Source: a candidate division WWE3 bacterium (GTDB lineage: Bacteria > Patescibacteriota > 4484-211 > GCA-002791395). Taken from it: DNA of 64,000 bases. Shown piece after piece: positions 35,937 through 60,506 of the stretch. The position numbers and the translations under genes are program-made. The number at the start of each line of letters is the position of its first letter. Within the stretch, counting starts at the first letter, position 1. The notes under the pieces are model-generated. The model did not search any database. It was not told the DNA's origin and saw only the letters and a list, made by a program, of their open reading frames with translations. Location of the stretch: assembly GCA_013335095.1 (NCBI GenBank), contig JAAXWF010000001.1, positions 86,797 to 150,796 on the forward strand. Direction: 5' to 3'.

Positions 35937-38252
35937 ATGTGGGATAATTTGGCTTCCGTTTTAGCTACATGTATGACCGATATAACAGCGAGTATTTACT
36001 ACCTACTGACAATAGAACTTTTGGGACTGATGGCTTGGCCATTTGCCCGTAGAATTTTAAAGGATCTTCCAGATCAGGGCTGGGCATTTGCCAAAATTTT
36101 AGGAATCCTCATGGTTTCGTGGTTAATGTGGTTACTCGCTTCACTCCATGTGCTAAGTTTTTCATACACAAATTTAGTTGTAGTAACACTGGCGGTTGCC
36201 CTCTTTTCTATATTCATAGGTAACACAAAAATAACATTTGGGGATGTACGAAAAGTATGGGCGTGGCTTCTAATCGAAGAAATTTTATTTATCACAATGT
36301 TTGGCCTATGGACATATGTGAGAGGATTTAGTCCAGCGATAAACGGCTTAGAAAAGTTCATGGATTATGGATTTATGGTTTCAGCGTATAGATCTGAATA
36401 CTTTCCACCGCTAGATCACTTTTTAGCCCGGGAGACAATAAATTATTACTACTTTGGTCATTATATTGCGGCGATGCTCTCAAAATTATCACGAGTACCA
36501 ACTGAGTTCGCCTACAACTTACAAATGTCTGCAATTATGGCATTAACGTTAATTCAGGCGTTTGCCCTGGCTGCGAGCCTATTCTGGTTCAATATGACCG
36601 ACGAGTTCAAACGAATCCCGTGGAGAAGTTGGTTCAGTGGAATCATAGCCGCAATCGCAGTCACCTTATTTGGAAACCTGCATGCAGCATTTTATCTTTA
36701 TCAGCAAGGTGAAAAATATTGGTATCCCGATGCTACCAGATTCATCGAATACACTATCCATGAATTTCCAATCTACAGTTTTATTGTTAATGATCTTCAC
36801 GGACATGTTAGTGATATCCCAACCGTTCTGCTCGTTTTAGCCTTACTTCTGGTCATGTTTCGCCATTTATTTGATTCTATTGCGGAACGACGAAAGAACA
36901 ACCAGGAAACTCTTCTACAGCTAATCACCATGAATATGCCAGTAGCTTTCATCACATTGGCTTGGCTAATTGGTACAACGTATACGACAAATGCTTGGGA
37001 CTTTGCCATATATCTTGTGGTATCGGGTTGCCTGATATGGGGATGGAGAGCGAGTGAACTTAAGCAACCTCAAAATTTATTCTCACGTCTGTTTCAGGTG
37101 GACGTTCTTATGAAGACTGCTATAAATTCAATCTTTTTGATGTCGTTCGCGATTCTCTTGTACTTACCTTTTTGGCGGCATTTAGTTCCGATTAGTCAAG
37201 GTATTGGAATTGTTCCACCAAATGGACGATCACCACTATGGCAACTTGGAATATTATGGGGAGTACATCTGCCTATCGTACTTATATTTTTATTATGGTT
37301 GTTTGAAATACGCCTTGAAAAAATAAAATTCACCGAAAAGATCGTTGCATTTTTTGCAAATATTCTCCAGGTAAAAATAACAATAGAAAAAGAGAAAACC
37401 ACGGAGCACATCCATACGACGAACCCACACCTCATAACGTTATTAGGTAAAGAACTGACATCTACCGATTTCATAATCTTAATTATGATCCTGGTAAGTC
37501 TGTTGTTAATTATTGCACCTGAATTTATTTTTATACGGGATATTTATCCACAGCATTACCGGGCCAATACAATGTTTAAGTTTTACTATCAGGCATGGAT
37601 AATGCTCGGGACGGTGTTTGGATTCGCAATAATTCGTTTATGGGCACATTTTAATAGGCATCCGAGCATTTATGGTTACTTGTTTAAATTACTGAGCCTT
37701 GTACTTATCTACTCAGCGTTAATGTATCCGTATAAAGCTATCAACCAAGGGTTCTCGCTCAAAACACCACGCTTATCAATAAACGGAATAACGTATTTAA
37801 CGATGAATCACTATGGCGATTCTCTAGCGATTAAATGGATTAATGAGCACATAAAAGGTCAACCGACTATGCTTGAGGGCGTTGGTGATAGCTATACAGA
37901 CTATGCCCGTATTGCATCTAACACTGGATTACCAACCGTAATGGGATGGCCGGTCCATGAATGGTTGTGGCGTGGAACATATGGTGAATCAATTGTTCCC
38001 AAAACTTATATAGAGAAAAAAACAGGTCAGGTAGACACGGTTGGTAATCGAGTAGATCAAGTAAAGCTAATCTATGAGGGCACAGACCTGAATGAAACAC
38101 GGCAATTACTCGGCAAATACGAAGTAAATTATGTATATGTTGGTGACTTGGAAAGGCAAAAATATCCATCAATGAATGAAAATAAATTCAGCGAAATGGG
38201 TTTACCGGTAGTATATGATAAAGAAAATGTTAAAATTTATTTAGTCCAATGA
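35937..38252 (+). CDS. large polytopic membrane protein (DUF2298 / YYY-type, GT-C-associated)
   Basis: 771 aa with about 15 TM helices and a large C-terminal extracytoplasmic domain. The family assignment is tentative. Confidence 0.45.
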   Translation: MWDNLASVLATCMTDITASIYYLLTIELLGLMAWPFARRILKDLPDQGWAFAKILGILMVSWLMWLLASLHVLSFSYTNLVVVTLAVALFSIFIGNTKITFGDVRKVWAWLLIEEILFITMFGLWTYVRGFSPAINGLEKFMDYGFMVSAYRSEYFPPLDHFLARETINYYYFGHYIAAMLSKLSRVPTEFAYNLQMSAIMALTLIQAFALAASLFWFNMTDEFKRIPWRSWFSGIIAAIAVTLFGNLHAAFYLYQQGEKYWYPDATRFIEYTIHEFPIYSFIVNDLHGHVSDIPTVLLVLALLLVMFRHLFDSIAERRKNNQETLLQLITMNMPVAFITLAWLIGTTYTTNAWDFAIYLVVSGCLIWGWRASELKQPQNLFSRLFQVDVLMKTAINSIFLMSFAILLYLPFWRHLVPISQGIGIVPPNGRSPLWQLGILWGVHLPIVLIFLLWLFEIRLEKIKFTEKIVAFFANILQVKITIEKEKTTEHIHTTNPHLITLLGKELTSTDFIILIMILVSLLLIIAPEFIFIRDIYPQHYRANTMFKFYYQAWIMLGTVFGFAIIRLWAHFNRHPSIYGYLFKLLSLVLIYSALMYPYKAINQGFSLKTPRLSINGITYLTMNHYGDSLAIKWINEHIKGQPTMLEGVGDSYTDYARIASNTGLPTVMGWPVHEWLWRGTYGESIVPKTYIEKKTGQVDTVGNRVDQVKLIYEGTDLNETRQLLGKYEVNYVYVGDLERQKYPSMNENKFSEMGLPVVYDKENVKIYLVQ

Positions 38253-38668
38253 GATTTCAATTTAATACCGCTCTTATTATCAGGTTTTTTACTATTTTAT
38301 CGGCCATTTCAATGATTATATCCCCAGTTGCGTCAGCCAATGCATTTGGCGTTGCGTGTCCAAAAGAATCTGAGGTTTATATTGCTCTATTTGATTCATG
38401 TTTAAGCTTTGGTCCAGCGATAAGCCTGACAATTAGTTGGTCGCTTGCTATTGGTACGGTACTCGCGTTAGCCAAGCTTGCCATTGGAGCAATTCAATTT
38501 TCATTCTCTACTGGGGAACCAGGTAAATTGGCAAATGCTCGAGCTACCTTAACCGATGCCTTCCTCGGCATCATTTTGATTGCATCAGCATGGATTATCT
38601 TTCGATTTATTTCCGGCTCACTTCCGGATCAATGGGATATTGATCTTCTCTTTTTCGATTTAAGTTAA
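38249..38668 (+). CDS. two-helix pilin-like protein (VirB2/TrbC-like domain), paralog 1
   Basis: A signal peptide, then hydrophobic helix 1, loop STGEPGKLANARATLTD, and helix 2 AFLGIILIASAWIIFRFISG. Its start overlaps the stop of the 771-aa gene. Confidence 0.5.
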   Translation: MRFQFNTALIIRFFTILSAISMIISPVASANAFGVACPKESEVYIALFDSCLSFGPAISLTISWSLAIGTVLALAKLAIGAIQFSFSTGEPGKLANARATLTDAFLGIILIASAWIIFRFISGSLPDQWDIDLLFFDLS

Positions 38669-38677
38669 TCGTTACCG

Positions 38678-39748
38678 ATGAAAAATATTAGTCATTTATT
38701 TATACCAGTTAAACATAACGATCATAGGCCGTACTTAACCCGCCATCCGGCATTAGCGCTATTTCTTCTTTTAATAATGACAGTTCAAACAACACTTAAT
38801 ATATTTACCTCAACAAGACCTCAGATCCTTGGATTTGCGACAAGTATCTATCAACAAGAGATCATCAGCTATACAAATCAGGAAAGAGAAAAAGATGGTT
38901 TGCCTGCATTAGTACATAACGCAAAGCTTGATGAAGCGGCAAAATTAAAAGCCCAAGATATGTTTGCCAAAAACTATTGGGCTCATGTTTCGCCAGATGG
39001 TATTGATCCGTGGCATTGGTTTGCCATGGTAAATTATGACTATACATCGGCTGGAGAGAATTTAGCCCAAGGTTTTGATACTTCGCGCGGAGTTATAAGT
39101 GGATGGATGGCTTCCCCATCACACCGAGAAAACATCTTATATAACAAATTTACTGAAATAGGAGTTGCGATCTTAAACGGCAATTTAGAAGGTGAAGATA
39201 CAACGTTGGTAGTTCAATTATTCGGAACCCCACCTGCTACAGCACCCGCCGTCGTCGCCCAAGCCCAACCGACAATAAAACCTACTGTAATAGCAACAAA
39301 AGCGCCTACACAAAAACCAGCTCCTACCGTTCAACTAATTCCGACAGATATCCCAGCATCCCCTACCGCAACGAGTACACCGTCCTCTCTGCAACAAGAG
39401 CTAGCAGTCCAGCCGACCAATTTACCGACACAAATAACTACAATAACAGACAACACACCAACCCCGAATCCAGAAGTCATAGTTGGCCCAAGTGGTGACT
39501 TCACGAATACTCCCCCCTCAAGACTGACAATGGTAATGGCGGCTGTAAGCGATTTACGAAACCTCAGTCCTGCCCGAATTTTTACCATAATAATGATTTC
39601 GTTTATTGTTATTCTTTTTCTGATAGATTCTATCGTGCTGTGGTACAAAAAAGTACACCGCCAAAATGCACACCGATTAATTTACGCCAGTATTCTGGTA
39701 ATCGCACTAATTAATATTATTTATTCGTCGGTTGGACTAGTATTGTAA
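38678..39748 (+). CDS. CAP (SCP/PR-1, YkwD-like) domain protein with Pro/Thr linker and C-terminal TM anchor
   Basis: EREKDGLPALVHNAKLDEAAKLKAQDMFAKNYWAHVSPDG...GENLAQGF...GWMASPSHRENIL matches the CAP domain. Confidence 0.75.
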   Translation: MKNISHLFIPVKHNDHRPYLTRHPALALFLLLIMTVQTTLNIFTSTRPQILGFATSIYQQEIISYTNQEREKDGLPALVHNAKLDEAAKLKAQDMFAKNYWAHVSPDGIDPWHWFAMVNYDYTSAGENLAQGFDTSRGVISGWMASPSHRENILYNKFTEIGVAILNGNLEGEDTTLVVQLFGTPPATAPAVVAQAQPTIKPTVIATKAPTQKPAPTVQLIPTDIPASPTATSTPSSLQQELAVQPTNLPTQITTITDNTPTPNPEVIVGPSGDFTNTPPSRLTMVMAAVSDLRNLSPARIFTIIMISFIVILFLIDSIVLWYKKVHRQNAHRLIYASILVIALINIIYSSVGLVL

Positions 39749-39749
39749 T

Positions 39750-40004
39750 ATGTATCATTTTATAAAACACCATATTTTTCAATACGCCATAATATTATTA
39801 TTATTCAGTGTCACTGTTACAAGTTTGTCGTCTAATATTGCTATTGGATATAAATTCCTGTTCTCTGGTATTGCGGTTGGAGTCTATTTCTTTTGGGCAA
39901 TATGGCATCACTGGGAGGATCATAAACTATCTTCAAAGACAATTCTAGAATATGCACTTTTGGTAACCCTCCTTCTTTGGCTGCTTTTGAATCTAGCAGT
40001 TTAA
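39750..40004 (+). CDS. small hypothetical membrane protein
   Basis: Two TM helices. Confidence 0.35.
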   Translation: MYHFIKHHIFQYAIILLLFSVTVTSLSSNIAIGYKFLFSGIAVGVYFFWAIWHHWEDHKLSSKTILEYALLVTLLLWLLLNLAV

Positions 40005-41212
40005 TCAACCGATAACGAAGATCTATCAAGATGTTCTAAATACTTACGTAATACAAACCCAGCCGCAAGTATGCTCATACCAAAGACAACCTGAAATAGT
40101 TGAGCAATTAACTTGTTATTTGAACCGATTCCAGTCTCTGGGAGCCGCTGAGCATCAGTACCTAATACAGCTGGCTTAATCAGGTTAGCGGGTGTTGAAA
40201 CAGCCGCTAGGACTTTTTCTGTCAATGTCTGTAGCGGTTGAATAATAGATTCTTGAAGTACTGTATTGTTATCACGTTCCTCAGATTCATTTTGCCGTCC
40301 TCCAATAGGTACCGAAGTTGGATAAACACTAATTCCAGGGTTTGGAGTAGGGCTTACAATGGCATTTGAGCTAACGTTATTTTCAACACGTGTCACCGCA
40401 GAGATCGAACCAGTTCTAATCATGCAACCCACATTATCGTTACAGTGATTATTTCCGGTATTTTGTATTTTATTAATCTGATTGGAAATTTCGATATTAT
40501 TAGTTTGATAAGCGGTTATAGAGCTCGACAGATTAACAAGAATGTTATTATTACTGCCATTCCCATTATTACTATTTGCCATATTCAATACTCCGTCTTC
40601 AAAACTTATAGGCAATGCCACATTTCTGCCCATATCATTGGTGACACTAACCTCATCGTAAATATTCCCTGTTGATATAACAACGTCACCTGAACTCCAC
40701 AAAGCACTATTATTACCCGTATTTGCATCGATATCCAGTGCATTACTTACAATTGAATTATTTGACTGCCCCCAATAGGGCTCGTTGTTAATATCGGCAC
40801 TAATAATATTTGTCGAAAAAGAACCATTATTGTCATTAGTAGAAGCAATATTACCTGCGTTATTATTTGTAACCTGGAGAGTATTAACATCACCCTCAGA
40901 ATTAACCAGAACAGAAGAATTAATATCTCCAGTTTCGAGTTTATTTTGACCATTATTATTTTGGATCACATTATCACCGGAGTTCAATAATTGATTGATA
41001 TCATTATTAATCGTCGTAGTATTTGATTGTAAAGCGCTCTGACTGCTTGTAATACTTACACTAGCACCATTAACACTATCAAGGCTATTAGAACTATTCG
41101 AGATAATTACGTTAGCATAAATAGGATTAACATATATAAGAGAAGATAAGGTCATACAGACCAACAGCTTCGGGGCAGTGACAGTCGTAGTAATCATTGA
41201 CCGACACTTCAT
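40001..41212 (-). CDS. N/S/T-rich secreted surface protein with LPxTG sortase sorting signal
   Basis: Signal peptide, low-complexity N/S/T-rich body with ANTGNN and NTGNNH repeats. The C-terminus is RLPETGIGS followed by a hydrophobic stretch and an RKYLEH tail. Confidence 0.7.
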   Translation of the reverse strand: MKCRSMITTTVTAPKLLVCMTLSSLIYVNPIYANVIISNSSNSLDSVNGASVSITSSQSALQSNTTTINNDINQLLNSGDNVIQNNNGQNKLETGDINSSVLVNSEGDVNTLQVTNNNAGNIASTNDNNGSFSTNIISADINNEPYWGQSNNSIVSNALDIDANTGNNSALWSSGDVVISTGNIYDEVSVTNDMGRNVALPISFEDGVLNMANSNNGNGSNNNILVNLSSSITAYQTNNIEISNQINKIQNTGNNHCNDNVGCMIRTGSISAVTRVENNVSSNAIVSPTPNPGISVYPTSVPIGGRQNESEERDNNTVLQESIIQPLQTLTEKVLAAVSTPANLIKPAVLGTDAQRLPETGIGSNNKLIAQLFQVVFGMSILAAGFVLRKYLEHLDRSSLSVD

Positions 41213-43512
41213 ATTGAGAGTAAAAACTTTTTTCGGATTACAAAGAATCCAGCAACCAATAAACTACTTATTAATATACCGACCTTCCACGGATTCAATT
41301 TTGGCCACTCAACTCGAGCACCCGCAACCTGAATATCAGAAGAACTATCATCTGTTGAAGAAGTCGCAGCGATCCGTTTAACTTTTAGTTTATCCGAAGT
41401 ATTACTGTTATCATTGTTAGAATCATTCTTAACAGACGCTCCTAATACAGATACTATAGACTTGCGAGAAGTGCCATTTATCGAGCTATTCTTACCCGTT
41501 GCATTTCGTTCAGGAGCCTTCACTGCATCATTATCTAGCACGGGGTGATTAGAAGAAGACTCAGTAGTACCAATTACTTCTAAAGCGATTGGCGTTGGGA
41601 AGGCTTGCACTTCTGAAGAAGAGTCCACAGCAACTTCGACAGAGACTTGCTGCTGATTTCCGATATTTTCATTGTTTGTATTGTTATCGTTATTCTCATG
41701 AGCGACTTCCTGCGCTTTATTAGTAAATTTACCCGTCCATTTCCCAAACAAATCATTGACTATGGTAAATACAACTCGTCCTCCTGCAAAATTGTTATTC
41801 AAAAAGTTCGTTATTGAGCTAACGATATTTACATCACCGGTGTTAATGCTTGTACTACCATCAAGATTATCCGCAATCTTGTTACCTCCAGTATTCGCAT
41901 TAATATTTATCGTATTATTAACGACAGCTTCATTAACTTGATTAATTGTGGTTGAATCTTCACGATTTACTACACCAGCATTCTCCGAATCTGTACCGTT
42001 ATTTGAATTATTAACATCAGATGAAATCTCGACAAGATCACCCGCACGATTTATATAATACGCTTTCAACTGTCCCCCTTGATTTAAGAATATTACATTC
42101 AAATCATCGCCAATAAAGTTTTGATTAGCAACAGTATTAACCTCGGCCGAAGTATTAACAGCTCCTGTTGTTATCGAATTTCCTTGCCCATCTCCATTAA
42201 TGTTATCTGATAATTTGTTTGACCCAGTGTTTGCGTCAATAACTAAAGTATTATTTATTGTGGCATTATTCTGTTGGTTGATTAATGTGTTTGATGAATC
42301 AGAGATTGTTCCATTATTAATTGAATTAGAGCCGTTACCTGAGTTATTAATTGCATAACTAGGATCAGCACTCTTTAATGGACTTTGATCAGGTAATACT
42401 ATATTGCCAGCAAAATCACCTAAAATATTTACGGTATTCACAACTAAGTCCGTGAGTGCAACAAAACTATTGTTGAGAAAATTAAATATATTCGCAACGA
42501 CGTTTGCATTACCAGTATTAATACTTGAATCACCAACGCTATCGGAAATCGTATTGGATCCTGTTTCTACGTCAATATTAATACTATTATCTACCTGTGA
42601 AAAATTATCAGTAGTAATAAATAAATTATTTCCACTTTGTATAATTCCAGAATTCACGCTGGATGATCCATTATTATCATTATTCACGCTTGCATCACCA
42701 TCACACGGGTTTATAGCGCTACAATTACTTGAGCCTGCGCTCAAAATAATATCTCCTGATTGATCGTCGGCTACATTAAACTCACTAGAAGAGATATCTG
42801 CACCCGTTAAATTAGTATTCGCAAAGTTGAAAATATTAACCGCACTTGTTACGTCTCCTGAATTAATAGTGCTACTACCACCTAGGTTATCGTGTATCTT
42901 ATTATCTCCAGTAACATAATCAACATTCACGCTGTTGTTAATATCTGTTTGATTCAATACATCGACAGTAGTGTCCGAAGCACCAGTTATGCTGCCGTTA
43001 TTCTCTGAACTCGCCTCATTTTGGATATTTGATACGCTAGTGTCTCCTCCATTTGAACCATCAAACAAACTCTGATTGTTATTCACATCATTATTGGTAT
43101 TAATAGATCCGTCAATAGAGCCGCTGTCGATTAAAGCGCTTCCTGAAAGATTATCATTATTATTCTGACCGCCATTAATTTGAGAATCGGGGTTATTCTG
43201 ACCACTATTTACAACTGTTGGAATTGGAGTCGGAGTTTTTGTTGGCTTTGGAGTCTTGGTTGGGATTGGTGTGTTAGAAATCTGGGTAACAGTAGGAACA
43301 CTTTGTGGCGTTGCCGTTGGTTGAATTGCTTGAGTCGGGGTTTGTGGAGGAGTCGGCATAGTCCAAACCGTAGTTGGCATAGCTGGTGGAGTAGGTATTG
43401 TTAAGGCTGGTGTTGGAGAAACATTAGTAACAGCGAAAGATAGTACTGGATTTACGATACTATATGCAATTTGTATTGTTATAAATGATTTTATTAATGT
43501 TTTGTTCATCAT
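41209..43512 (-). CDS. large N/T/S/G-rich secreted surface protein with Pro/Thr N-terminal linker and C-terminal TM anchor
   Basis: Signal peptide, PT-rich region, and repeated IDANTGSNKLSDN / INANTGGNKIADN motifs. ATGA overlaps the downstream gene. Confidence 0.6.
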   Translation of the reverse strand: MMNKTLIKSFITIQIAYSIVNPVLSFAVTNVSPTPALTIPTPPAMPTTVWTMPTPPQTPTQAIQPTATPQSVPTVTQISNTPIPTKTPKPTKTPTPIPTVVNSGQNNPDSQINGGQNNNDNLSGSALIDSGSIDGSINTNNDVNNNQSLFDGSNGGDTSVSNIQNEASSENNGSITGASDTTVDVLNQTDINNSVNVDYVTGDNKIHDNLGGSSTINSGDVTSAVNIFNFANTNLTGADISSSEFNVADDQSGDIILSAGSSNCSAINPCDGDASVNNDNNGSSSVNSGIIQSGNNLFITTDNFSQVDNSINIDVETGSNTISDSVGDSSINTGNANVVANIFNFLNNSFVALTDLVVNTVNILGDFAGNIVLPDQSPLKSADPSYAINNSGNGSNSINNGTISDSSNTLINQQNNATINNTLVIDANTGSNKLSDNINGDGQGNSITTGAVNTSAEVNTVANQNFIGDDLNVIFLNQGGQLKAYYINRAGDLVEISSDVNNSNNGTDSENAGVVNREDSTTINQVNEAVVNNTININANTGGNKIADNLDGSTSINTGDVNIVSSITNFLNNNFAGGRVVFTIVNDLFGKWTGKFTNKAQEVAHENNDNNTNNENIGNQQQVSVEVAVDSSSEVQAFPTPIALEVIGTTESSSNHPVLDNDAVKAPERNATGKNSSINGTSRKSIVSVLGASVKNDSNNDNSNTSDKLKVKRIAATSSTDDSSSDIQVAGARVEWPKLNPWKVGILISSLLVAGFFVIRKKFLLSI

Positions 43513-43593
43513 ATTTTTTCCTTCTACAAAAGGGTTTACCGCAGGAGAGAATAACTCCTCTCCTGACGGAAAACGCTCTTGCTTCTTTGCACA

Positions 43594-44799
43594 CTAACTG
43601 AGGAGATGCATTAGCATCATTAAAATGCTTGCACCATTCCAATCACCACTTAAATCATGAAGATCTGAGGTGGTGTCACCAATCACGTTTTGTCCTGCGG
43701 TATTATGTACCTCGACATCTGAATCTACGTCACCGGTATTCATATCATCTGAATTGTTATCAGAGATTTGATTATCTCCAGTGGCACCGTGTTGGTCTGC
43801 ATTATTATCGAAGGAGAGTTCATCATTGAACTGTTGGAACAGATCAGCAAAAGATAGTTCGAGACCAGCTTCGTTTTCTGTATCACGACCATTCTTTTCA
43901 TTAAGAACCTCAACATCGACATCACACATACAATCTCCTGCTGCAAGTACATTAGCACCAGCAGTATTGGCAATCTTGGCAGTCTGATCGACTGAGCCAG
44001 TTTCGGCAGCAGCTCCGCCTAGGTTATCCTTTGCGTCGTTGTCACCAGTGTTTGCATGTTGATCTAAATTGTTATCAACATCAACTTCATTTGATTGCAC
44101 CGCAACATTGGAGTGATTCACATTAGCGAAAACGCTATTTTCTGAATCTCGACCATTTGTTGAATTGGTTAAGGAGAATGAGCTAGATCCACCATTTCGT
44201 GAACCTAAGACAGCATGATTACCACCTGAGAGTGTTTCAACACTAGCATCTTGGTCAACATCTCCTGTTTGTACCGAGACTTCGGTATCAGAATTGTTGT
44301 CTTTCAAAGCATTATCGCCAGTATTAGCGTTTTGCTTAAGCTTGTTATTTACATCGACATTATTGGTTTGCATTAATGAAGATGCTTGTGTAGCGTTAAA
44401 TGCTGCAGTGTTTTCTGAATCTCGACCATTCTTTTCGTTAACGATCTCAACATCATAATCACAATCGCATTGTTGTAATTGCGCGACATTTTCACCAGCA
44501 TTGTTTACAACGCTTGCTTCCTGGTTTACATCACCAGTTTTAACATCGACACCTCCCAAATTGTCTTGTACTTTATTATCACCTGTATTAGCGTTTTGAT
44601 TGATATTGTTATCAATCTGAACATTATTAGTCTGATATACGCTAGATTCACGATTAATTTGAATCGTGCCTGAATTCTGGCTATCTCGACCGTTGGTGGA
44701 ATTCGTAATAGTATAAGTCGCAGCAAAAGCTGGTTGGGCCATTTGGAGCAGTAAAGCTCCGGTAGCTACTCCGGTTGCAATTTTTTGTGTTATTTTCAT
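43594..44799 (-). CDS. secreted repeat protein (four ~95-aa repeats with CDCD motifs)
   Basis: Signal peptide MKITQKIATGVATGALLLQMAQPAFA. The repeats contain NSTNGRDSQNS ... QNANTGDNKVQDN ... KTGDV ... CDCDYDVEIVNEKNGRDSEN. An AGGAGG RBS precedes the start. Confidence 0.6.
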   Translation of the reverse strand: MKITQKIATGVATGALLLQMAQPAFAATYTITNSTNGRDSQNSGTIQINRESSVYQTNNVQIDNNINQNANTGDNKVQDNLGGVDVKTGDVNQEASVVNNAGENVAQLQQCDCDYDVEIVNEKNGRDSENTAAFNATQASSLMQTNNVDVNNKLKQNANTGDNALKDNNSDTEVSVQTGDVDQDASVETLSGGNHAVLGSRNGGSSSFSLTNSTNGRDSENSVFANVNHSNVAVQSNEVDVDNNLDQHANTGDNDAKDNLGGAAAETGSVDQTAKIANTAGANVLAAGDCMCDVDVEVLNEKNGRDTENEAGLELSFADLFQQFNDELSFDNNADQHGATGDNQISDNNSDDMNTGDVDSDVEVHNTAGQNVIGDTTSDLHDLSGDWNGASILMMLMHLLS

Positions 44800-44861
44800 T
44801 CTATTCACCTCCTTTCGCAATTAGTCCCTTGTATAAGTGTTATCTTTATTTAACTAGGGCT

Positions 44862-45443: not shown

Positions 45444-45444
45444 A

Positions 45445-45498
45445 TCAAAAAAGGCACGGAATATTTAACAAATAAGTAGTTGTTAAATATTCCGTGCC
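45445..45498 (-). terminator. rho-independent terminator with a perfect 19-bp stem
   Basis: ggcacggaatatttaacaa-ataagtag-ttgttaaatattccgtgcc. On the minus strand it is followed by ttttttga, just downstream of the YezD-like gene. Confidence 0.6.
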
Positions 45499-45781: not shown

Positions 45782-45944
45782 AGCTATATTAAAAAACAAT
45801 GGTCAGTGAGGAAAATCGCAGCCTTGAGTTGTAGGCTGTTCACAATTATAGGGAGAGCTTATTTAGTGTCAATAGGATCGTCAATTAATCCCTTTGTAGA
45901 AGTTCAAATTGACATCAATACTTTTTGGCCGTATTATTCGCTTT

Positions 45945-47111
45945 ATGTCGAGACGAACAAATATCCAATACAAGAAAGCATTCGTTACGCTTTTTTTAAC
46001 AATGGTATTCTCTACTAAATTTGCAACTCATGTTACGGCAGCAACCTTTATAGCTGAAAATGCTCCTAAATTAAATAAAGAAGAAACCGTCGATGGGAAC
46101 TTCTATTCCCGTGGCAATCTAGTATCTGTCAATGGCACAATCCACGGAAATGCATATATAGCAGGCCAAACAGTAACAATTACTGGAAAAATCGATAAAG
46201 ACTTAACCGTTGCGGGACAAAACATCATACTTGATGAAGCATCAATATCAGGTGATGTGCGTTTATTTGGTGGCGAGGTCACGATACGAAAATCAGAAAT
46301 AGGAGACGAAGTAATTGTAGCTGCGGCAAAATTAAATATAGGTAAGGATACAAAAATTAACGGAACTACCATGGTAGCATCTGGAGAGTCCGTTATTGAT
46401 GCAAGCATTGGCGAGGATCTTATTACGGCATCAGGGTCACTTTCAAGTTCGGCAATTATTAACGGATCAGTATACATTGGAGGACGAAGTATTTCATTGT
46501 CTCCTGAAGCCCAGGTTCAAGGAGATATTTTCTACTCCTCAGACAACAAAGCACAAATAGATCCATCCACGAAGATTACGGGACAAGTCCACCAATTTCC
46601 ACCACTTCAAAGCGCACCTTCCAATAATCACATTCGCCTCACTATTTGGGGAATATTAACGTCACTAGTTTTAGGCTTTACCATCATTAGCCTTTTTTAC
46701 CATAAAACTTATGAACTATCCCAAATACTTATAGAGAGGACTTGGAGTTCATTTGGATGGGGGTTTGCAACGATTATACTTACTCCGATAATTAGTGTGT
46801 TATTAATCACTACGTTAATAGGATTACCATTAGGTATTATTACATTATTTTTCTATATACTTGCCATTTATATCAGTCGCATTTTTATGGCATATACACT
46901 AGGTCGATTATTTATCGGTCGTGGCAACACCGATACTTCACAGAGACGATGGTATACTCTCGGTGCTGGTATTCTCGCGTACTTCATAATCACCTCTATT
47001 CCATTTATAGGGCCTATATTCACCCTGTTTAGTATTACATTAGTCTTAGGGGCGATGTTTATTGAAGGTCGCCATTGGTTTATTTCTAGAAATGTCAAAG
47101 AAAACAACTAA
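45945..47111 (+). CDS. secreted beta-helical repeat protein (YvlB/DUF4097 or bactofilin-like repeats) with C-terminal multi-TM anchor
   Basis: Repetitive G-x-hydrophobic periodicity (VNGTIHGNAYIAGQTVTITGKIDKDLTVAGQNIILD...), then four TM helices. Confidence 0.45.
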   Translation: MSRRTNIQYKKAFVTLFLTMVFSTKFATHVTAATFIAENAPKLNKEETVDGNFYSRGNLVSVNGTIHGNAYIAGQTVTITGKIDKDLTVAGQNIILDEASISGDVRLFGGEVTIRKSEIGDEVIVAAAKLNIGKDTKINGTTMVASGESVIDASIGEDLITASGSLSSSAIINGSVYIGGRSISLSPEAQVQGDIFYSSDNKAQIDPSTKITGQVHQFPPLQSAPSNNHIRLTIWGILTSLVLGFTIISLFYHKTYELSQILIERTWSSFGWGFATIILTPIISVLLITTLIGLPLGIITLFFYILAIYISRIFMAYTLGRLFIGRGNTDTSQRRWYTLGAGILAYFIITSIPFIGPIFTLFSITLVLGAMFIEGRHWFISRNVKENN

Positions 47112-48180: not shown

Positions 48181-48190
48181 AAACAATCAC

Positions 48191-49402: not shown

Positions 49403-50236
49403 TTAAAGTGATACCGCTTTAATTAATTCTCCGACAGCAATATAACGTTGATGATCAAATCCCGGTGGTATACAAGTCATAAGCGTTAACATTTTCTTAT
49501 TCGACGGTTGATTCGTAATAAATACATCCTTTGGAGTAACAACGCCAGTTTGGCTAATCTGATAAGTATACTCGGTTCCCATATAAATAACGCGTACGAC
49601 ATCGCCTGCCTTTATTTTTGGTAAATCAGTAAAAATAGATTCATAGTCATTTGATGCCAGTAGGGGTAACTTAGAGTGACCAAATAGGAATGAGTTCCCA
49701 TTTTGGCCCGGTAATGCAGATCCTTTTAGATGGGCGACGGCTCGAGTTAGTACCCGATCATAAATGTGTTCGTCTGTCCCATTCACATTCAGCTCAACTT
49801 TACGATTGTCGATTCCTAGCGCCGGGACAGATACGAAGACTTCACTATCAATCTTTTCTGAAAGTACGCTTCCAAGTGGTGATGAATCTTGCCGAAGAAT
49901 CGAAAGAGAGGAACCCGGGGTTGGTGAAGGTATCATTTTTGTCGGTGAAGGTGTTGATTTATTGGGGTTTAATAATAAATTTCCAAAGCCGGTACGAATA
50001 TCTATTGTTGTGCCATCCTCCGAATTCATCTGGACAGCAGAAATCACAGACGGAGTATCGACGGTAAATAACGCGGTGTTATCGAATTTCGGTAATGTAT
50101 TGCTCCATATGAAATAGATCCAACCCAAATATACTAATCCAACTCCCCCTACAGTTATCAGGGCAGCTCCTATCAAACGGGGAAAATGATATCTGTATTC
50201 AAGGACGATCGGTTCCATTCTGTTCGTCGTTTCCAC
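49403..50236 (-). CDS. sortase family transpeptidase
   Basis: N-terminal TM anchor. Catalytic His in FLFGHS. Cys in the TLxTC motif LTLMTCIPPG, followed by a conserved Arg. Confidence 0.8.
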   Translation of the reverse strand: METTNRMEPIVLEYRYHFPRLIGAALITVGGVGLVYLGWIYFIWSNTLPKFDNTALFTVDTPSVISAVQMNSEDGTTIDIRTGFGNLLLNPNKSTPSPTKMIPSPTPGSSLSILRQDSSPLGSVLSEKIDSEVFVSVPALGIDNRKVELNVNGTDEHIYDRVLTRAVAHLKGSALPGQNGNSFLFGHSKLPLLASNDYESIFTDLPKIKAGDVVRVIYMGTEYTYQISQTGVVTPKDVFITNQPSNKKMLTLMTCIPPGFDHQRYIAVGELIKAVSL

Positions 50237-51146
50237 GGATCTGTCGGCGAACTAAGCTCCGCATTTCTTGATGCTTACGCCATTGATTTATTTTCTGAAT
50301 TACTATGTATGCTAATGCACTAAAAAATGCTACGACACCGACAATCAACAAATAAATCCAAATAGTTGTAGCCTGTTTTAAATAGACATCAACAGCAACC
50401 GAGGCATTTTTTATTTCAACGACATCTGTAACCTGTTTATAATAACCAACTTTATTAATTTCAACATAATATTGACCCGCGGGTACAAAAAACTGATATT
50501 GGCCAAAGACATCTGAGGTGTATGGGTTTCTCTGGTTATCAAATGTTTGAGCCGGCCAGACCTCCCAACGGCCATTGTTTAGCCAATACAAGGTAACTTC
50601 AACCCCTGCTAATATAGTATGTTCACTTAACGTTCTAACTTTACCCGAAAGCTGAACTAATGAATTGGGATCAACAGTGGCTGTTGTAGCAACCGTTGGA
50701 GTCGGGACCTCTTGAGTGCTTTGTTCTTGGGCATATACGCTGGTGGGCTTAAAATACGAAAAGATATCAATATTAAACGGCTGGGTAAAGGTTCGAAGTA
50801 ATATATATGCGCTTCCTGCAAGAATTAAACCAAAAATACTATATGTGATAGTTGCCCGGGCTTGTTCTTGTTGCCGTGTATCATCCTGAGCGGTGACATA
50901 CAGATATCCAGCATAAATCATAAATGCCAACGATGCTATAACGGCTGTTATAACTGACATATTAAACATATAAATTGCTAAAACGGGTAGTTGGCGAACC
51001 GCACACGATGGAACTAAAAGAGGATTCGCTAGTGAATCACAGGGTATACGAGTTGGATACGGCGTGGTTGCATGAACATGAGCAGGTACGACCAAAAATA
51101 CGGCTAAAATAACAAAGATAAAAATAGAATGCTTAATAAATCTCAT
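50199..51146 (-). CDS. two-helix pilin-like domain (paralog 2) fused to a carboxypeptidase-regulatory-like beta-sandwich domain and C-terminal TM
   Basis: Signal peptide; hydrophobic helix 1 VITAVIASLAFMIYAGYLYV; loop TAQDDTRQQEQARATITYS; helix 2 IFGLILAGSAYILLRTF. Then VEVTLYW...FVPAGQYYVEINKVGYY. Its 3' end overlaps the sortase gene by 38 nt. Confidence 0.5.
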   Translation of the reverse strand: MRFIKHSIFIFVILAVFLVVPAHVHATTPYPTRIPCDSLANPLLVPSCAVRQLPVLAIYMFNMSVITAVIASLAFMIYAGYLYVTAQDDTRQQEQARATITYSIFGLILAGSAYILLRTFTQPFNIDIFSYFKPTSVYAQEQSTQEVPTPTVATTATVDPNSLVQLSGKVRTLSEHTILAGVEVTLYWLNNGRWEVWPAQTFDNQRNPYTSDVFGQYQFFVPAGQYYVEINKVGYYKQVTDVVEIKNASVAVDVYLKQATTIWIYLLIVGVVAFFSALAYIVIQKINQWRKHQEMRSLVRRQIRGNDEQNGTDRP

Positions 51147-51253
51147 AGTACGTCAAAATGCCCTATTACCACAAATACAATCCTAACATTGACAAATACG
51201 ACTGTCAACGGAATTTCCTGATAATATAAAGAAAATCCGATATTATTATTAAC

Positions 51254-51931: not shown

Positions 51932-52338
51932 AAATCACATATAAAATTTTATTATCCTTTATTGCCCTAATATGTATTATCACCATGCCCATGCTGGTAT
52001 ATAGATCTAAATCAAATAAACAAACCCAAATCAGTGAACCTACATCGACCCCGTCACCCACACCAACGCCTCCATATTTATCCTATTTAGAGAGACAAGC
52101 AGATTATACAGGAACAGTAGAATCAGTTAAGCTGCCTAATGAAATCACACTAGCGGCTTTAAACCAAAGCAAGTTGGAACTTCAACTAGAACCCAATATT
52201 CCTATTTATATATCTAAAGAAATGTCCAGCGGTTCCCATGACATCACAGTAACAACAGTAAATGATATACAGATTGGGATGACTTTAAGCGTATACACGA
52301 AAGATCATAATATATTAGCGATCTTTATTACTAAATAA
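51928..52338 (+). CDS. hypothetical membrane-anchored protein
   Basis: N-terminal TM and a PTSTPSPTPTPP linker. ATGA overlaps the upstream gene. Confidence 0.4.
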   Translation: MKITYKILLSFIALICIITMPMLVYRSKSNKQTQISEPTSTPSPTPTPPYLSYLERQADYTGTVESVKLPNEITLAALNQSKLELQLEPNIPIYISKEMSSGSHDITVTTVNDIQIGMTLSVYTKDHNILAIFITK

Positions 52339-52341
52339 TCT

Positions 52342-54563: not shown

Positions 54564-54634
54564 ACCTGCAATAGTAGCACTATAACCTATATATGGTCAA
54601 TAAAATCCTCCATTAGTACGATACAATAAGAAAC

Positions 54635-55696: not shown

Positions 55697-55901
55697 AATA
55701 GGCGTTCAAAATCAATCCTTATACTAAATAATTCATCAAACTGAATTTCCTTAAATTAAGTATATCTTCACGCCAGAAGGTTACTTTTTATCTTTAATAG
55801 AATTAGAAGGTACAGTTGAAAAGATACTTTAAATTTCTTTAGGATTTAGCTTAAAAACACGCGCTCTATTAATGCCTGCATACGTCTCGAGATGATTATG
55901 A

Positions 55902-58900
55902 TCAATCGTCATCAAGCGCCTTATACTTTCGAGCCTCACGTAATATACCTGCCCGTTGTTCAGGATCAAGAGTATCTAGTCGGCGCAGGAACTCTGGCAA
56001 GCTGACTTTCTTTCCGGATGTGTTATCAGTTATTAAGTCCTTCAATGTGGCATCTCCAGCTTGACCATCAAGATGCTCCAAACCTGTACGTTTCTGGCCT
56101 GTCCTCTTATCGATCGCCAAATCTTGCTTGGATATCTTCTGATTCTGCATGTCAAAGATAGGTAGTGTTTGTGGCATTTGATCATGTACTGTTTCTGCCT
56201 TAGGTAGGTCAGCAAAATTAACATTTTTAATCTCAGGATGTTTATTGAGCCAGAGTCGGAATCTCTCGGCTTGTGCTTTTCGACGACCAATAACTGTAGT
56301 CTTATCTTGTGCTTTACGCTGAAGCATGCGCATACCTTCCTTACTACCAGCCTTAGAACCTCTCTTACCCGCTTCAAGGGCTTTATCTCGTGCAGTTTTA
56401 GCATCCTCAGCGGCCATTTGGAACTGCTCTGTCATAGCACCACCAGCTCCAAGAGTCGCAACACTAAATGCACGGCTACCGAAGTTTGATACTCCACGGC
56501 GCATTTTCTCTAATCGAGATGGAGGTACTAATTTATCCTGAGCATCTTGTTCGGCAGATTTTCGTGTTCGATAAGCTAAGCTGGCATTACGACGAGCAGC
56601 GGTATCCTTACTAAACTTAGCTGCAGCATTTGCTAATCCGGCCGCAGATGTCGGAATTGCCAAACCATCAACGTTTATCATCTTTTGAGGTAATTTGACA
56701 CCAAACCAAAGTGTAATCATCGCAATCAATGACGAGCCAAATCCAGCAAACATTGATTTTTCGTCAGCACCAATAGTTAGAAGTAATATGCCGACACAAA
56801 GAACAGCAGCAACAGCAGTCTGAACAAATGTTATACCAACGATAGCACTAAACCATTTAGAACGGAGACCATCAAACCAGGGCATGACACTGAATGCAAA
56901 TATTGCAGGGGCAACAATTACTGCGAGCCAAATAATCGCATATCGGGCAAAGAATAGTAATAGTAATAACATAACCTGCATAAAGATGATTCCGATGAAT
57001 ATGACCGCGAACAAAATAATACCGATCAGAGCGCCACCACCAGTTGCTGCAACTAATGACATGAGGCCCATGACTGCGGTAACAGCCGCTGAGGCAAAAC
57101 TACCCATAACCGCAACACCAGCACCTACACCAGCTACGCCCACGACAGCCTTATTTCCTGCAGCAGTAAATGACTGCTGTAAAATTTCTTGAGTGAATTG
57201 GAATAGAGCCATTGAGAGGAAGTTGTTTATATCCAATAATGCTTGGACGATTATCAAGCTGAAGTTAGCCAATACAACACCCATCAATAACTGAGGTAAT
57301 ATTACCGAAATATGCCACTGTTCAGGTTGATATCGCAATATCGTCATTACTCCGATAACGACAAAGATTAGAACAAATAATACGTTTACTACATTTCTAA
57401 TGATGTCGTAGATACTGATAATTGCTTGATCTTGTGTTAAAGCTCGTGTCTGAAGACCGTACTTGAAGATAGCACTCATGACACCAGGAACATGCTTAGC
57501 AAACTGATCACCAACGGCACAAGCTGCACCAGCAGCAAGTCCATTAATTTGAGCACCTATATCTAAATTTAGATTGATATCATTAGAGCTACCACCACCA
57601 GGAACCGCAATCGTGACCATCTTACCACTCTGATCATTAGCAACTTTGCGAGCAAATGCTTCACAATTAAACTCAAGGTCAATGGTTACCTGAGGAGGAC
57701 TGACAGTACCAGACGAGTCAATTGAAATACGACGCGATTGATTAACAGGCTGCCCATCGATATCTCCCTCAACTACTATTTCATAAGTATTTGTAGCAAT
57801 ACCAATATCGGTTAATGCATCACAATATATCGGAGCACCCGAAGCATCTGTACAGATTTGGCCGACCTGTGAGCCATCAACAGGAGCAGGCAAAGATACG
57901 ATAAAACTTCCAGATGCAGGAACAACACCTAATTGCCCATCCACTGTAGGTTCATCTGACAATAGATCCGTTCCATTTGATTGGAATAATATGCAGTCGT
58001 TTACGATGTCACATTGTACGGCAACATCATTAGTGACCTGATAAACATTGACATTAACACGTCCATCCACTTGAGACTGACCTGGGATCTTAACGGTAAC
58101 GCCCACTGGTGAGCGTAATCCAGGAGTCGCCGCAAGTGCACTTTGGGGAGTTGCAGCGTCTTTAATCCAGTTCAATAGTGCAAGATTATATGTATCGGGC
58201 CCCTTAGATGCAGTTTGCAGACCGCCGACATTCACGCGATGGAAAGAACCTTGAGCGTAATCAACAGATTCTAAGCCGGCATATTGGTTATATCGAACAA
58301 GTACATTGAGCCCTAGGTTACCACTTGCAGCAGCAGGCGCTCCAGGTCTCGTAATAGGCCGCAAGTCAGCAGGAGGAATGTGGACTTGCCCAATACGGTT
58401 TGTATAGTAGAGATTATTTTCTGCAGGGACATCGATGCCCTCAGACCCAACTTCAGCAACTGTTACCCGAGCACCTGGTGCATATTGTGTACCACCAGGA
58501 CCAGGCACATTAATTAACAAACCCTCATCAAATCCTTCATTACCGGTTGCAGATTCATGCGCAACAACATCGATTCGACGAGGTCCATCAGTCGATCTAA
58601 ACAATCCAGTCCCTGACGCTGCCCGGTCAAATCGAGATAGATCAGCAACACTATTATCTAATATAACAGTAACATCATCACTACGAGCGACAGTACCACT
58701 ACCTGCAACCATATTTGAACCGAATTGATAAATACCCCGAACAGCAATACCTTGATTTCCTGTACCTGTTGAAGGTAAGTATACATATCTAACATTTTGA
58801 TCATCATTATTTGAACCTGAATAATCAATGCCCAGATCACTTTCAACTAATAACCGAGCATTAGGCATACGAACAAGACTTGGGCCAGAAACCGTCAATT

Positions 58901-60143
58901 GTCGCGAGCTTAATAAACTACCAAATTCATTTGTAATAGTACCCCATACAATTAAACGATTATCAGGATATATAATTTGATACGAAGTTACTGGTGGAAC
59001 ATCTATATTCAACATTCGACGCCAGTCCGACGATTGTTCAAATGACATATCGTTCTCAACAACCCATACCTGTCCGACTCCATGGCTATGCGAATTCAAT
59101 GCAGACTGTCCATCCCAGTCAGAATATGAAGGGCTACTACTTTCACGTCTCCACACAATTATTTCATAAAATCCTTCTGGAGCAAAAGCCTGAAAAGAAA
59201 ATGTACTAGTTGTACTGCCATTTGCCGGATCTACAGATTCAACATTCCGGATTGCTCGTCCTTTGATAATTGGAAAGTCTAATACCCCAGCTAATTGCCC
59301 CGAAGCCGGGCCTGTAGTTGCCAGAGTCCGAGTTACCCGTTGAGCCCAGATTTCGTACTGACTACCACTAGGTTCCTTAGCACTAATACTTATACGAAGC
59401 GTGTCGTTTGGAACGACAGGAAATGTGTTTATGTTATTACTAATATCAAGTTCATTACGTGTTGTAACAAAGGCATGACGGACTGCTATTTGTTCAAAAT
59501 TGCGGCTAGCTCCAGTAACTTCGACCTGAGAATCTACAACCTTTACTTGACTATCGGGCAAATAGTTTGCTTTATAGGAGAACACATCTAGAATTTTATC
59601 GTCGTTCTCAGGCATTCTAAATGACCAATCGCGTTGTATCCCGCTAGAAGTACGGCAAGGATTTGTGGGTGTATCGGTAGTATCGTTTGCAGCGGGCGCA
59701 AATGAAGCGCTGGTACATTCGACACGGCTGACAGTACCGCCATTTAAAATAAAGGGAAAGTAAACACCATAATATGAACCAGCTGGCAATCCCTGGACTT
59801 GGAAACTGCCGTCTGTTCTAATCTGAGTACGTACCGCTAAGTTTGAATTTATCCAAGATTCACTCGTAAATACACCTTGCTCGTTAAACCCAGCCCAAAA
59901 GTCAAAGGTGAAAACGTATACAGGAAGCCCAGCCAGCTCAGCAAACGCCTGAGTAGGATCGTACGCTTCGCCAATGAAGGCAGGGATTATTCTTCCAGTG
60001 AAGATATCCGCATTGGTTGGTCGGTTTACCGCCTCGGCTGCCGGGGCTTGACTAAGTAGTACACAGGCTACTAATGCAATAGTCAAGGACCCCCCGACAA
60101 ACCTTAGCATTTTTCGTATATTCATCTTTCTCAACTCGCTCAT
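55902..60143 (-). CDS. giant (1413 aa) surface protein: signal peptide, ~880-aa extracellular region, VirB6/TrbL-like polytopic domain, basic cytoplasmic tail
   Basis: Signal peptide ...ALVACVLLSQAPAAEA. A 6-8 TM bundle spans aa ~905-1155. A ~260-aa Lys/Arg-rich tail follows. This architecture is typical of VirB6-like proteins in monoderm type IV secretion systems. Confidence 0.5.
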   Translation of the reverse strand: MSELRKMNIRKMLRFVGGSLTIALVACVLLSQAPAAEAVNRPTNADIFTGRIIPAFIGEAYDPTQAFAELAGLPVYVFTFDFWAGFNEQGVFTSESWINSNLAVRTQIRTDGSFQVQGLPAGSYYGVYFPFILNGGTVSRVECTSASFAPAANDTTDTPTNPCRTSSGIQRDWSFRMPENDDKILDVFSYKANYLPDSQVKVVDSQVEVTGASRNFEQIAVRHAFVTTRNELDISNNINTFPVVPNDTLRISISAKEPSGSQYEIWAQRVTRTLATTGPASGQLAGVLDFPIIKGRAIRNVESVDPANGSTTSTFSFQAFAPEGFYEIIVWRRESSSPSYSDWDGQSALNSHSHGVGQVWVVENDMSFEQSSDWRRMLNIDVPPVTSYQIIYPDNRLIVWGTITNEFGSLLSSRQLTVSGPSLVRMPNARLLVESDLGIDYSGSNNDDQNVRYVYLPSTGTGNQGIAVRGIYQFGSNMVAGSGTVARSDDVTVILDNSVADLSRFDRAASGTGLFRSTDGPRRIDVVAHESATGNEGFDEGLLINVPGPGGTQYAPGARVTVAEVGSEGIDVPAENNLYYTNRIGQVHIPPADLRPITRPGAPAAASGNLGLNVLVRYNQYAGLESVDYAQGSFHRVNVGGLQTASKGPDTYNLALLNWIKDAATPQSALAATPGLRSPVGVTVKIPGQSQVDGRVNVNVYQVTNDVAVQCDIVNDCILFQSNGTDLLSDEPTVDGQLGVVPASGSFIVSLPAPVDGSQVGQICTDASGAPIYCDALTDIGIATNTYEIVVEGDIDGQPVNQSRRISIDSSGTVSPPQVTIDLEFNCEAFARKVANDQSGKMVTIAVPGGGSSNDINLNLDIGAQINGLAAGAACAVGDQFAKHVPGVMSAIFKYGLQTRALTQDQAIISIYDIIRNVVNVLFVLIFVVIGVMTILRYQPEQWHISVILPQLLMGVVLANFSLIIVQALLDINNFLSMALFQFTQEILQQSFTAAGNKAVVGVAGVGAGVAVMGSFASAAVTAVMGLMSLVAATGGGALIGIILFAVIFIGIIFMQVMLLLLLFFARYAIIWLAVIVAPAIFAFSVMPWFDGLRSKWFSAIVGITFVQTAVAAVLCVGILLLTIGADEKSMFAGFGSSLIAMITLWFGVKLPQKMINVDGLAIPTSAAGLANAAAKFSKDTAARRNASLAYRTRKSAEQDAQDKLVPPSRLEKMRRGVSNFGSRAFSVATLGAGGAMTEQFQMAAEDAKTARDKALEAGKRGSKAGSKEGMRMLQRKAQDKTTVIGRRKAQAERFRLWLNKHPEIKNVNFADLPKAETVHDQMPQTLPIFDMQNQKISKQDLAIDKRTGQKRTGLEHLDGQAGDATLKDLITDNTSGKKVSLPEFLRRLDTLDPEQRAGILREARKYKALDDD

Positions 60144-60170
60144 TCCAAACTAAATCAACTACCCGTTTAT

Positions 60171-60506
60171 TTAGAAGCCGAAAACGGCGCCCACATTTAA
60201 CAGGCCAGCTAATAATCGGAAGATAACGAATGCTGATGCGATAATAATCAACCCAATAACTGCGTTTGTAATAGTGCCACGAGCACCTTCAGCTTTACCG
60301 GAGTCATCACCAGCGGTAACGTAGTTAAAACCACCGATCAGAATAAAGATCAAACAAACTAATGCACCTAAAGCGATAGCCCAGTTAATTAACGTTGCGA
60401 CTAATTCTCCAAAATTACCAGTAAAACCTGCCGTTGGAGTTGGAACGACTAGACTAGAGGGCAAGGGTTGCTGTGCTTGAACTTTATTTACTAAAAAATT
60501 AAGCAT
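60171..60506 (-). CDS. two-helix pilin-like protein (VirB2/TrbC-like), paralog 3
   Basis: Signal sequence; helix 1 LINWAIALGALVCLIFILIGGFNYV; loop TAGDDSGKAEGARGTITN; helix 2 AVIGLIIIASAFVIFRLLAG. A strong AGGAGG RBS precedes it. It lies immediately upstream of the giant VirB6-like gene. Confidence 0.55.
   Translation of the reverse strand: MLNFLVNKVQAQQPLPSSLVVPTPTAGFTGNFGELVATLINWAIALGALVCLIFILIGGFNYVTAGDDSGKAEGARGTITNAVIGLIIIASAFVIFRLLAGLLNVGAVFGF

Follow-up and report, generated by a model that had tools for sequence, protein, structure and literature searches.

Three small hairpin proteins, each encoded beside a different large membrane or surface gene, raise the question of whether a chromosomal region serves several independent surface systems or holds the scattered parts of one. 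Such a region is found in a 64,000-nucleotide (nt) stretch of the genome of a candidate division WWE3 bacterium (assembly GCA_013335095.1, contig JAAXWF010000001.1, positions 86,797 to 150,796), the whole of which is here termed the window. The three proteins, copies 1 to 3, had originally been predicted as VirB2/TrbC-like pilins that act as a modular surface subunit with different partners and not in a single system. The evidence presented below favours, with a probability of roughly 0.7, the view that they are paralogous subunits of one Patescibacteria-type type IV secretion system (T4SS) apparatus, monoderm and MPF-FATA-derived, the genes of which are dispersed in this genome. On this reading the system is a dispersed copy of a secretion or pilus machine already described in ultrasmall bacteria, and not a new kind of machine.

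Three paralogs of the PF18895 pilin family

Copy 1 (139 amino acids (aa); 38249-38668, plus strand; NTV30482.1, HGA91_00685), copy 2 (315 aa; 50199-51146, minus strand; 100% identical to NTV30493.1) and copy 3 (111 aa; 60171-60506, minus strand) are present as open reading frames (ORFs) exactly as first described, second-helix cores included, copy 2 being a fusion protein with a PF18895-like hairpin. The proposed kinship of their helix cores was borne out by BLASTP with composition-based statistics, where copy 3 matches copy 1 (37% over 73 aa, E = 4e-16) and copy 2 (33% over 73 aa, E = 2e-14), and copies 1 and 2 match each other (24% over 121 aa, E = 2e-5). A family hidden Markov model (HMM) retrieved just these three copies from the window, which has 787 stop-to-stop frames with a length of 35 aa or more, and gave the next best frame an E-value of 0.4. 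The three ORFs are real paralogs, and their resemblance lies far above chance. Two hydrophobic helices joined by a polar loop (G-G-x-x-Y-x-T/S-x-G-D ... A-R/K-x-T-I-T-N-A-V-I-G-L) occur in all of them. The end of the loop reads AR(A/G)T(I/L)T(D/Y/N) in the three copies, much as predicted; A74, R75, T79 and G84 (copy 3 numbering) do not vary in alignment A3, and the loop motif GD...AR.T.T is constant throughout the family. Copy 3 is a canonical PF18895 T4SS_pilin protein (45.3 bits, E = 9.4e-12, against a gathering threshold of 26.6), and is joined in this family by copy 1 (26.8 bits, E = 5.6e-6) and copy 2 (26.5 bits), to which, as to its homologs, the precomputed annotation also assigns PF18895. 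At the level of sequence, membership of the three copies in the PF18895 "type IV secretion system pilin" family is established.

Proteins as short and hydrophobic as these could owe their similarity to composition and be generic transmembrane hairpins with no specific relation to T4SS pilins, a suspicion fed by weak, spurious matches of the copies to other transmembrane families (MscL, DctQ and DUF2839) and by hhalign comparisons with VirB2 that are not significant with shallow alignments. The composition-corrected pairwise E-values, down to 4e-16, the invariant polar loop motif, the specific 45-bit PF18895 match and the repeated neighbourhood of VirB6-like and VirB4 genes described below effectively refute this explanation, which is barely worth entertaining any longer.

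For comparison with the classical pilins, an Agrobacterium tumefaciens VirB2 sequence, 99% identical to annotated VirB2 genes, was aligned with seven annotated TrbC/VirB2 proteins. Against these eight proteins, hhalign returned a probability of 2% for a shallow, 13-sequence pilin alignment and of 44% (pairwise E = 2.4e-4) for a 75-sequence Patescibacterial pilin alignment, the latter being collinear over 64 columns, which is the whole mature pilin. Beyond this collinearity, the copies share with Agrobacterium VirB2 and RP4 TrbC (PF04956) the small two-helix hairpin, the short polar loop and neighbouring genes of VirB6 type, as well as a signal peptide in copies 1 and 2. They differ from these pilins in their longer and more acidic loop (GDD..K.E.AR), in the leaderless copy 3 and in their monoderm host, which hence has no outer-membrane core complex. 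The Mbov_0395-family pilin-like protein of Mycoplasma integrative and conjugative elements (ICEs; NF045849) is likewise a small protein with two transmembrane helices that belongs to a monoderm MPF-FATA-type T4SS. Its model is matched weakly by the three copies (17-30 bits, under the family cut-off of 40), with copy 3 reaching an E-value of 2.9e-7 over 72 of the 80 model positions, but the genes in the window are not located on an ICE.

A signal peptide had been predicted for all three copies. Sec-type signal peptides are indeed predicted for copies 1 and 2, but not for copy 3, which is without a classical hydrophobic signal peptide; its frame can be extended upstream by three codons at most, and its orthologs start alike. 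In the copy 3-type pilins (60171-60506 and orthologs P0001-P0007), helix 1 is preceded by a Pro-rich stretch and, at the N-terminus, by a short conserved K(V/A)xA motif, which may represent a short cleaved leader.

A giant VirB6-like partner of copy 3

Copy 3, the PF18895 domain of which spans aa 29-99 (60210-60422, minus strand), is preceded by a strong ribosome-binding site (AAGGAGG) and is the first gene of an operon with a 1413-aa protein, here called the giant (55902-60143, minus strand; NTV30499.1, HGA91_00775). The linkage originally described for this pair needs correction: the two genes are separated by a gap of 27 nt and do not overlap, but they do form one operon. The giant is made up of a signal peptide, an ectodomain of ~860 aa (57444-60026), six to seven transmembrane helices (aa ~905-1150, 56694-57431) and a charged cytoplasmic tail of ~260 aa (55905-56693). 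PF18895 is present in all homologs of copy 3, each of these is followed by a giant of 1396-1445 aa, and the synteny of the pair is conserved in relatives, with SecDF/RecJ on one flank and GT4/SBP/GroESL on the other.

Five lines of evidence, drawn from transitive homology, fold and context, place the giant as a divergent, extended protein of the VirB6/TrbL superfamily. A word-indexed protein search with its transmembrane domain returned one match (P0011, E = 1.5e-8), which carries PF04610. Because hydrophobic candidates had overwhelmed this search, phmmer was run exhaustively over 1.84 billion representatives instead and recovered 2,593 relatives at E <= 1e-3. PF04610 is matched by 10 of 40 sampled relatives, with a best E-value of 7e-9; the other families among these 40 are limited to DUF3223 in one member, with no other membrane-protein family. 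The top four PDB matches of the AlphaFold model of the transmembrane domain, which has a predicted local distance difference test (pLDDT) score of 75, are all R388 TrwI/VirB6 (probability 0.66-0.95). In the reciprocal direction, VirB6-like ORFs located next to VirB4 in loci of Saccharibacteria match just the giant in the window (E = 1e-14). The fifth line is the conserved pairing of pilin and giant itself, and the VirB6-like character first proposed for this protein is upheld. PDB sequence searches with copy 3, with the transmembrane domain of the giant and with a 25-sequence profile of that domain yielded nothing meaningful.

Among extended VirB6 proteins, the Rvh VirB6 paralogs of the Rickettsiales (PMC12857230) and R388 TrwI/VirB6 (PDB 7O3V, 8RT9) resemble the giant in having a polytopic domain of at least five helices and large hydrophilic extensions, in addition to the fold match to TrwI and the PF04610 matches among the relatives of the giant. 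The giant differs in the position of its large extension, which is N-terminal, led by a signal peptide and ~860 aa in length, in its additional charged C-terminal tail, and in a sequence too divergent for a direct Pfam match. A tblastn search with its transmembrane domain against 72,556 plasmids gave no match, and the region is therefore not a recognisable plasmid or ICE conjugation module.

Pilin loci in relatives and the ATPase module

A pilin-profile scan of species-representative genomes identified 24 loci that are consistent with Patescibacteria metagenome-assembled genomes, although several of the records bear other automatic labels, e.g. "uncultured Gammaproteobacteria". Tandem arrays of two to seven pilin genes occur among these loci, and a VirB6-like gene is found within 10 kb of the pilins in 11 of the 24. 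Loci L018 and L025 share the order VirB4, two small proteins, one or more VirB6-like genes and a divergent pilin array, with VirB4 confirmed in both; L019 is near-identical to L018 and has the same layout, the confirmation of VirB4 being limited to the former two loci. This picture matches that of a published survey, in which pilin arrays hold 2-11 divergent pilins (PMC12102498), and of the array of Southlakia epibionticum, which together with the T4SS is essential for epibiotic growth (PMC10633639; reviewed in PMC12857230). On VirB4 in WWE3 or Katanobacteria, literature searches yielded nothing.

Two further loci, found via relatives of the giant, bear directly on the relationship between the copies. 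In L121, two pilin genes and a full-length giant ortholog (E = 1e-81, with both the ectodomain and the transmembrane domain matching) form an operon that is directly adjoined, in divergent orientation, by genes for VirB4 (DUF87/AAA_10/P-loop_TraG), a TraC-like protein, a CarboxypepD_reg protein and PrgI. In L120, one operon comprises a copy-1 ortholog (L120_pil250, E = 9e-22, the distinctive C-terminal tail included) upstream of a copy-3 ortholog (E = 1e-32) and the giant. As for T4SS genes near these pilins, there is a VirB6-like gene beside copy 3 in the window, where VirB4 and PrgI are absent; VirB4 and PrgI adjoin the orthologous operon in L121, and VirB4 adjoins the arrays in L018 and L025. 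Because L120 groups the orthologs of copies 1 and 3 with the giant, and because the L121 operon adjoins VirB4, one apparatus is preferred over three modules. Read most simply, copies 1 and 3 and the giant would all go back to a single T4SS operon, and copy 1 would have been displaced by 22 kb in this genome.

The closest known counterparts are the Patescibacteria T4SS pilin arrays, as exemplified by SEML1_0006-0019 of S. epibionticum ML1 (PMC10633639) and the PF18895 survey (PMC12102498). Common to these and the window are PF18895 itself, the presence of several divergent paralogs per genome, a chromosomal location without a nearby relaxase gene, an adjacent VirB6-like gene and a monoderm host lineage. 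In the window, however, the copies are spread over 22 kb and do not form a tandem array beside virB4, which is not in the window; the VirB6-like partner is an extended form of 1.4 thousand aa that is not detected by the Pfam TrbL profile; and one copy, whose gene overlaps that of a sortase, has a β-sandwich and an additional membrane anchor.

Several observations weigh against a single T4SS apparatus. Pfam revealed no VirB4, VirD4, VirB11, PrgI or TraC-like gene in the 64-kb window, an additional ~13 kb on a 38.6-kb Logan contig is likewise without them, and phmmer searches with Saccharibacterial and L121 T4SS proteins also found none of these in the window. Nor does VirB4 lie within 10 kb of the pilin and giant pair in the WWE3-type loci L002, L004, L009, L011, L013 and L014. 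The full-length giant has no match to PF04610 (TrbL) at E <= 1 and no direct Pfam match, and its TrwI fold match is weak in absolute terms (E = 0.09-0.6 and TM-scores of 0.35-0.45, the best match combining a probability of 0.95 with an E-value of 0.09). Copy 2 falls 0.1 bit under the PF18895 gathering threshold. The VirB2/TrbC character originally assigned to the copies stands in so far as they belong to a T4SS pilin family, but PF04956 (TrbC/VirB2) matches none of them at E <= 1, and homology of the PF18895 pilins to classical VirB2, as judged from the alignments, is plausible and unproven. To our knowledge, no pilus has ever been visualised for the PF18895 family.

The lack of a nearby ATPase gene would suit a VirB4-independent remnant, in which the ATPase module was lost or was never linked, and the pilin and extended VirB6 protein were repurposed as a static membrane or adhesion complex instead of an active machine. 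None of the seven WWE3-type loci examined has an ATPase within reach, the pilin and giant pair occupies a conserved housekeeping context, and the ~860-aa ectodomain of the giant suggests a role in surface interaction. A remnant is nevertheless unlikely. VirB4 is encoded in 2,417 of 3,035 Patescibacteria genomes (~80%), with 18 of 20 classes represented; of the 1,948 Patescibacteria assemblies with PF18895 pilins, 1,135 have them near virB4, while in ~40% of the genomes having both the pilins are far from virB4 (PMC12102498). Furthermore, the orthologous operon lies beside VirB4 in L121, and the three pilin ORFs and the giant are all intact and conserved.

In the single, dispersed apparatus favoured here, each pilin would reside in the membrane as a two-helix hairpin with both termini outside (N-out/C-out) and the GD...AR-T-I-T-N loop in the cytoplasm, a predicted topology that is self-consistent because the β-sandwich of copy 2 would then be extracellular and its Arg/Lys-rich tail cytoplasmic. 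Copy 3 would be the principal pilin, co-transcribed with the giant extended VirB6-like protein, which would serve pilin extraction and assembly as a platform or channel in the membrane. Copy 1 would constitute a second pilin type, its counterpart in relatives sharing an operon with the copy-3 ortholog and the giant, and copy 2 a lineage-specific variant that would display a transthyretin/CnaB-like β-sandwich at the cell surface, held there by its extra C-terminal anchor. A VirB4 ATPase, along with PrgI/VirB3 and TraC-like partners, would be required for polymerisation into a filament or conduit; the genes for these proteins must, in this genome, lie outside the window, and the assembled structure may function in host-cell contact or exchange.

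Neighbouring genes and the copy 2 fusion

In copy 1, encoded on the plus strand, a signal peptide (aa 1-32, 38249-38344) and a short N-terminal stretch containing Cys precede the PF18895 hairpin (aa 64-121, 38438-38611). The start of copy 1 overlaps by 4 nt (ATGA) the stop of a gene coding for a 771-aa DUF2298 polytopic membrane protein (35937-38252, plus strand; PF10060, E = 6e-96). The sortase (271 aa from the ATG at 50218; 49403-50218, minus strand; PF04203, E = 5.8e-22) has its ATG 20 nt inside the 3' end of copy 2. For these two copies the genes do overlap, in keeping with the proposed translational linkage. Such couplings are at the root of the original proposal that the hairpin is a general membrane or filament module, the copies of which serve three separate surface systems, with DUF2298, the sortase and the giant, independently of a T4SS. 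Every copy has its own, closely linked partner gene, and both the overlap of copy 2 with the sortase gene, which recurs in a 71%-identity relative, and the adjacency of copy 1 and DUF2298 are retained in the closest relatives. Further afield, however, the pairings disappear. A metagenome scan with copy 1 alone turned up no relative, and the DUF2298 protein served in its place as the query for metagenomic loci; in the resulting set, a pilin lies downstream of DUF2298 in one of 80 related loci, namely the closest (L046, 52% identity), where it is a copy-1 ortholog. Near the pilins of the 24 other loci there is no sortase, DUF2298 or CAP-domain gene. On the basis of these counts (1/80 and 0/24), the DUF2298 and sortase pairings are lineage-specific and confined to the closest relatives. 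Together with the copy-1 ortholog inside the operon of the giant in L120, the VirB4 gene abutting that operon in L121, and the presence near the sortase of a canonical LPETG substrate while copy 2 has no LPXTG motif, this renders three separate systems improbable and weakens the earlier argument from different partners. The DUF2298 protein is probably a neighbour of the apparatus and not a part of it, while the association of copy 2 with the sortase may be functional.

One aspect of the modular idea does find support, since the hairpin commonly carries surface domains. Elsewhere in Patescibacteria, PF18895 hairpins are fused on their C-terminal side to Big_5, TIG and fn3 ectodomains in proteins of 413-2058 aa without a second anchor, which points to use of the N-terminal hairpin as an anchor. 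Large pilin-domain ORFs are found in L016, L020, L022, L023, L027 and L030-L032, with Big_5, TIG or fn3 domains in L022, L023, L027, L030 and L032; no ectodomain family was matched in the large fusions of L016 and L020. This fusion architecture is not discussed in the Patescibacteria T4SS papers PMC10633639 and PMC12102498. Single ORFs with three tandem PF18895-like domains each occur in L015 (8349-9773, 474 aa) and L028 (1772-3256, 494 aa), and are either true tandem-pilin fusions or an artefact of ORF calling or genetic code.

Copy 2 (minus strand throughout) begins with a signal peptide (51069-51146), after which come the hairpin (aa 47-124, 50775-51008) and, behind a disordered linker rich in T, P and Q, a β-sandwich (aa 164-256, 50379-50657) of the transthyretin/CarboxypepD_reg/CnaB-like type. 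The protein ends in a transmembrane helix with an Arg/Lys-rich tail (50202-50369). This architecture is kept in P0013 (71% identity) and P0014 (36% identity). An AlphaFold2 model built on a 15-sequence alignment (pLDDT 74) comprises a signal helix, a helical hairpin, a disordered linker, the β-sandwich (pLDDT 76-91) and a long C-terminal helix. The fusion to a carboxypeptidase-regulatory-like domain had been noticed from the outset. Its CarboxypepD_reg (PF13620) match (E = 8e-7, 29.7 bits) is under the Pfam cut-off of 32.3, but the domain type is confirmed by the predicted fold. Foldseek matched this fold to transthyretin-like domains in carboxypeptidases N and D (2nsm, 5aq0), with E ~1e-5 and a TMt of up to 0.84, as well as to domains of the CnaB type from Gram-positive pilins assembled by sortases. 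In L121, the VirB4 cluster includes, between its TraC-like and PrgI genes, a gene (9693-10994, minus strand) for a 433-aa protein that combines a coiled coil with a CarboxypepD_reg domain at its C-terminus; this domain is of the same β-sandwich family as that of copy 2, with no specific sequence similarity. The β-sandwich of copy 2 showed no significant similarity to this protein or to the ectodomain of the giant.

With sortase-assembled pilins of the CnaB type (SpaA, RrgA, PilB), copy 2 has in common the β-sandwich, the hydrophobic helix with a basic tail and the translational coupling to a sortase. It differs in having no LPXTG-type motif and no evidence of a pilin-motif lysine, and in its N-terminus, which is a T4SS-type hairpin and not a cleaved signal peptide alone. 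Ahead of the hydrophobic helix and R/K tail, a (K/E)QA(T/S) sequence (KQATT/EQASE) is conserved. The minus strand at 40001-44820 encodes three Asn/Asp/Ser/Thr-rich repeat proteins (403, 767 and 408 aa) that match no Pfam family and whose repeats are of the 'GDN..DN.GG' type. The 403-aa protein ends in RLPETG, a hydrophobic segment and RK, which constitutes a classical sorting signal. The actual sortase substrate is probably this protein. It is a long shot, although a conceivable one, that copy 2 is a hybrid of a VirB2-like hairpin, a CnaB/transthyretin-like domain and a sorting-signal-like C-terminus, with the coupled sortase processing a non-LPXTG site. If so, a T4SS-derived filament or platform would be covalently tethered to the cell wall or to other subunits. 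On a wider and similarly remote view, many Patescibacteria may use the PF18895 hairpin as an anchor to present adhesin ectodomains (the Big_5, TIG and fn3 fusions of up to 2 thousand aa) on a T4SS-built host-gripping structure. A TTGACA-17-TAGGAT site lies 34 nt upstream of copy 2, but carries no evidential weight, as the promoter and terminator scan yielded sites at chance level (39 against 38.2 expected).

The window otherwise represents ordinary chromosome, with genes for MutS, an AddA-type helicase, KsgA, YidC and TruB, among others. Immediately upstream of copy 1 (31904-38252) is a cluster of envelope-glycosylation type, with two PMT_2 GT-C glycosyltransferases, a methyltransferase and the DUF2298 protein, and copy 1 is followed by a gene for a membrane-anchored CAP-domain protein (38678-39748). 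Type IV pilus genes are located at 498-1223 (plus strand) and 13765-15026 (minus strand) and code for a prepilin-like protein with an N_methyl motif and for PilO-like and PilN-like proteins; the T4SS-type pilins are thus accompanied by components of type IV pili. A segment with a GC content of 53%, compared with ~39% around it, encodes an 840-aa M23 peptidase (10036-12558, plus strand) that contains three Big_7 Ig domains and may have been acquired horizontally. At 5463-8476 (plus strand), a 586-aa DUF2326 and AAA_23 protein is preceded by two uncharacterised ORFs, and the three may form a defence-type module. A 400-aa protein (45909-47111, plus strand) has a weak bactofilin-like N-terminal domain, to which the precomputed annotation adds DUF8173, and four C-terminal transmembrane helices.

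The window adds a WWE3-class example of dispersed T4SS parts. Its noteworthy details are the pilin, β-sandwich and anchor fusion coupled to a sortase and the extended VirB6 protein, which is invisible to the standard profiles and may explain the apparent scarcity of VirB6 in some classes. These are of use for the annotation of candidate phyla radiation genomes and the choice of targets for structural work, and leave the current picture unchanged, that of a machinery whose genes, including a VirB2-like pilin array, are essential for epibiotic growth in the one genetically tractable Patescibacterium.

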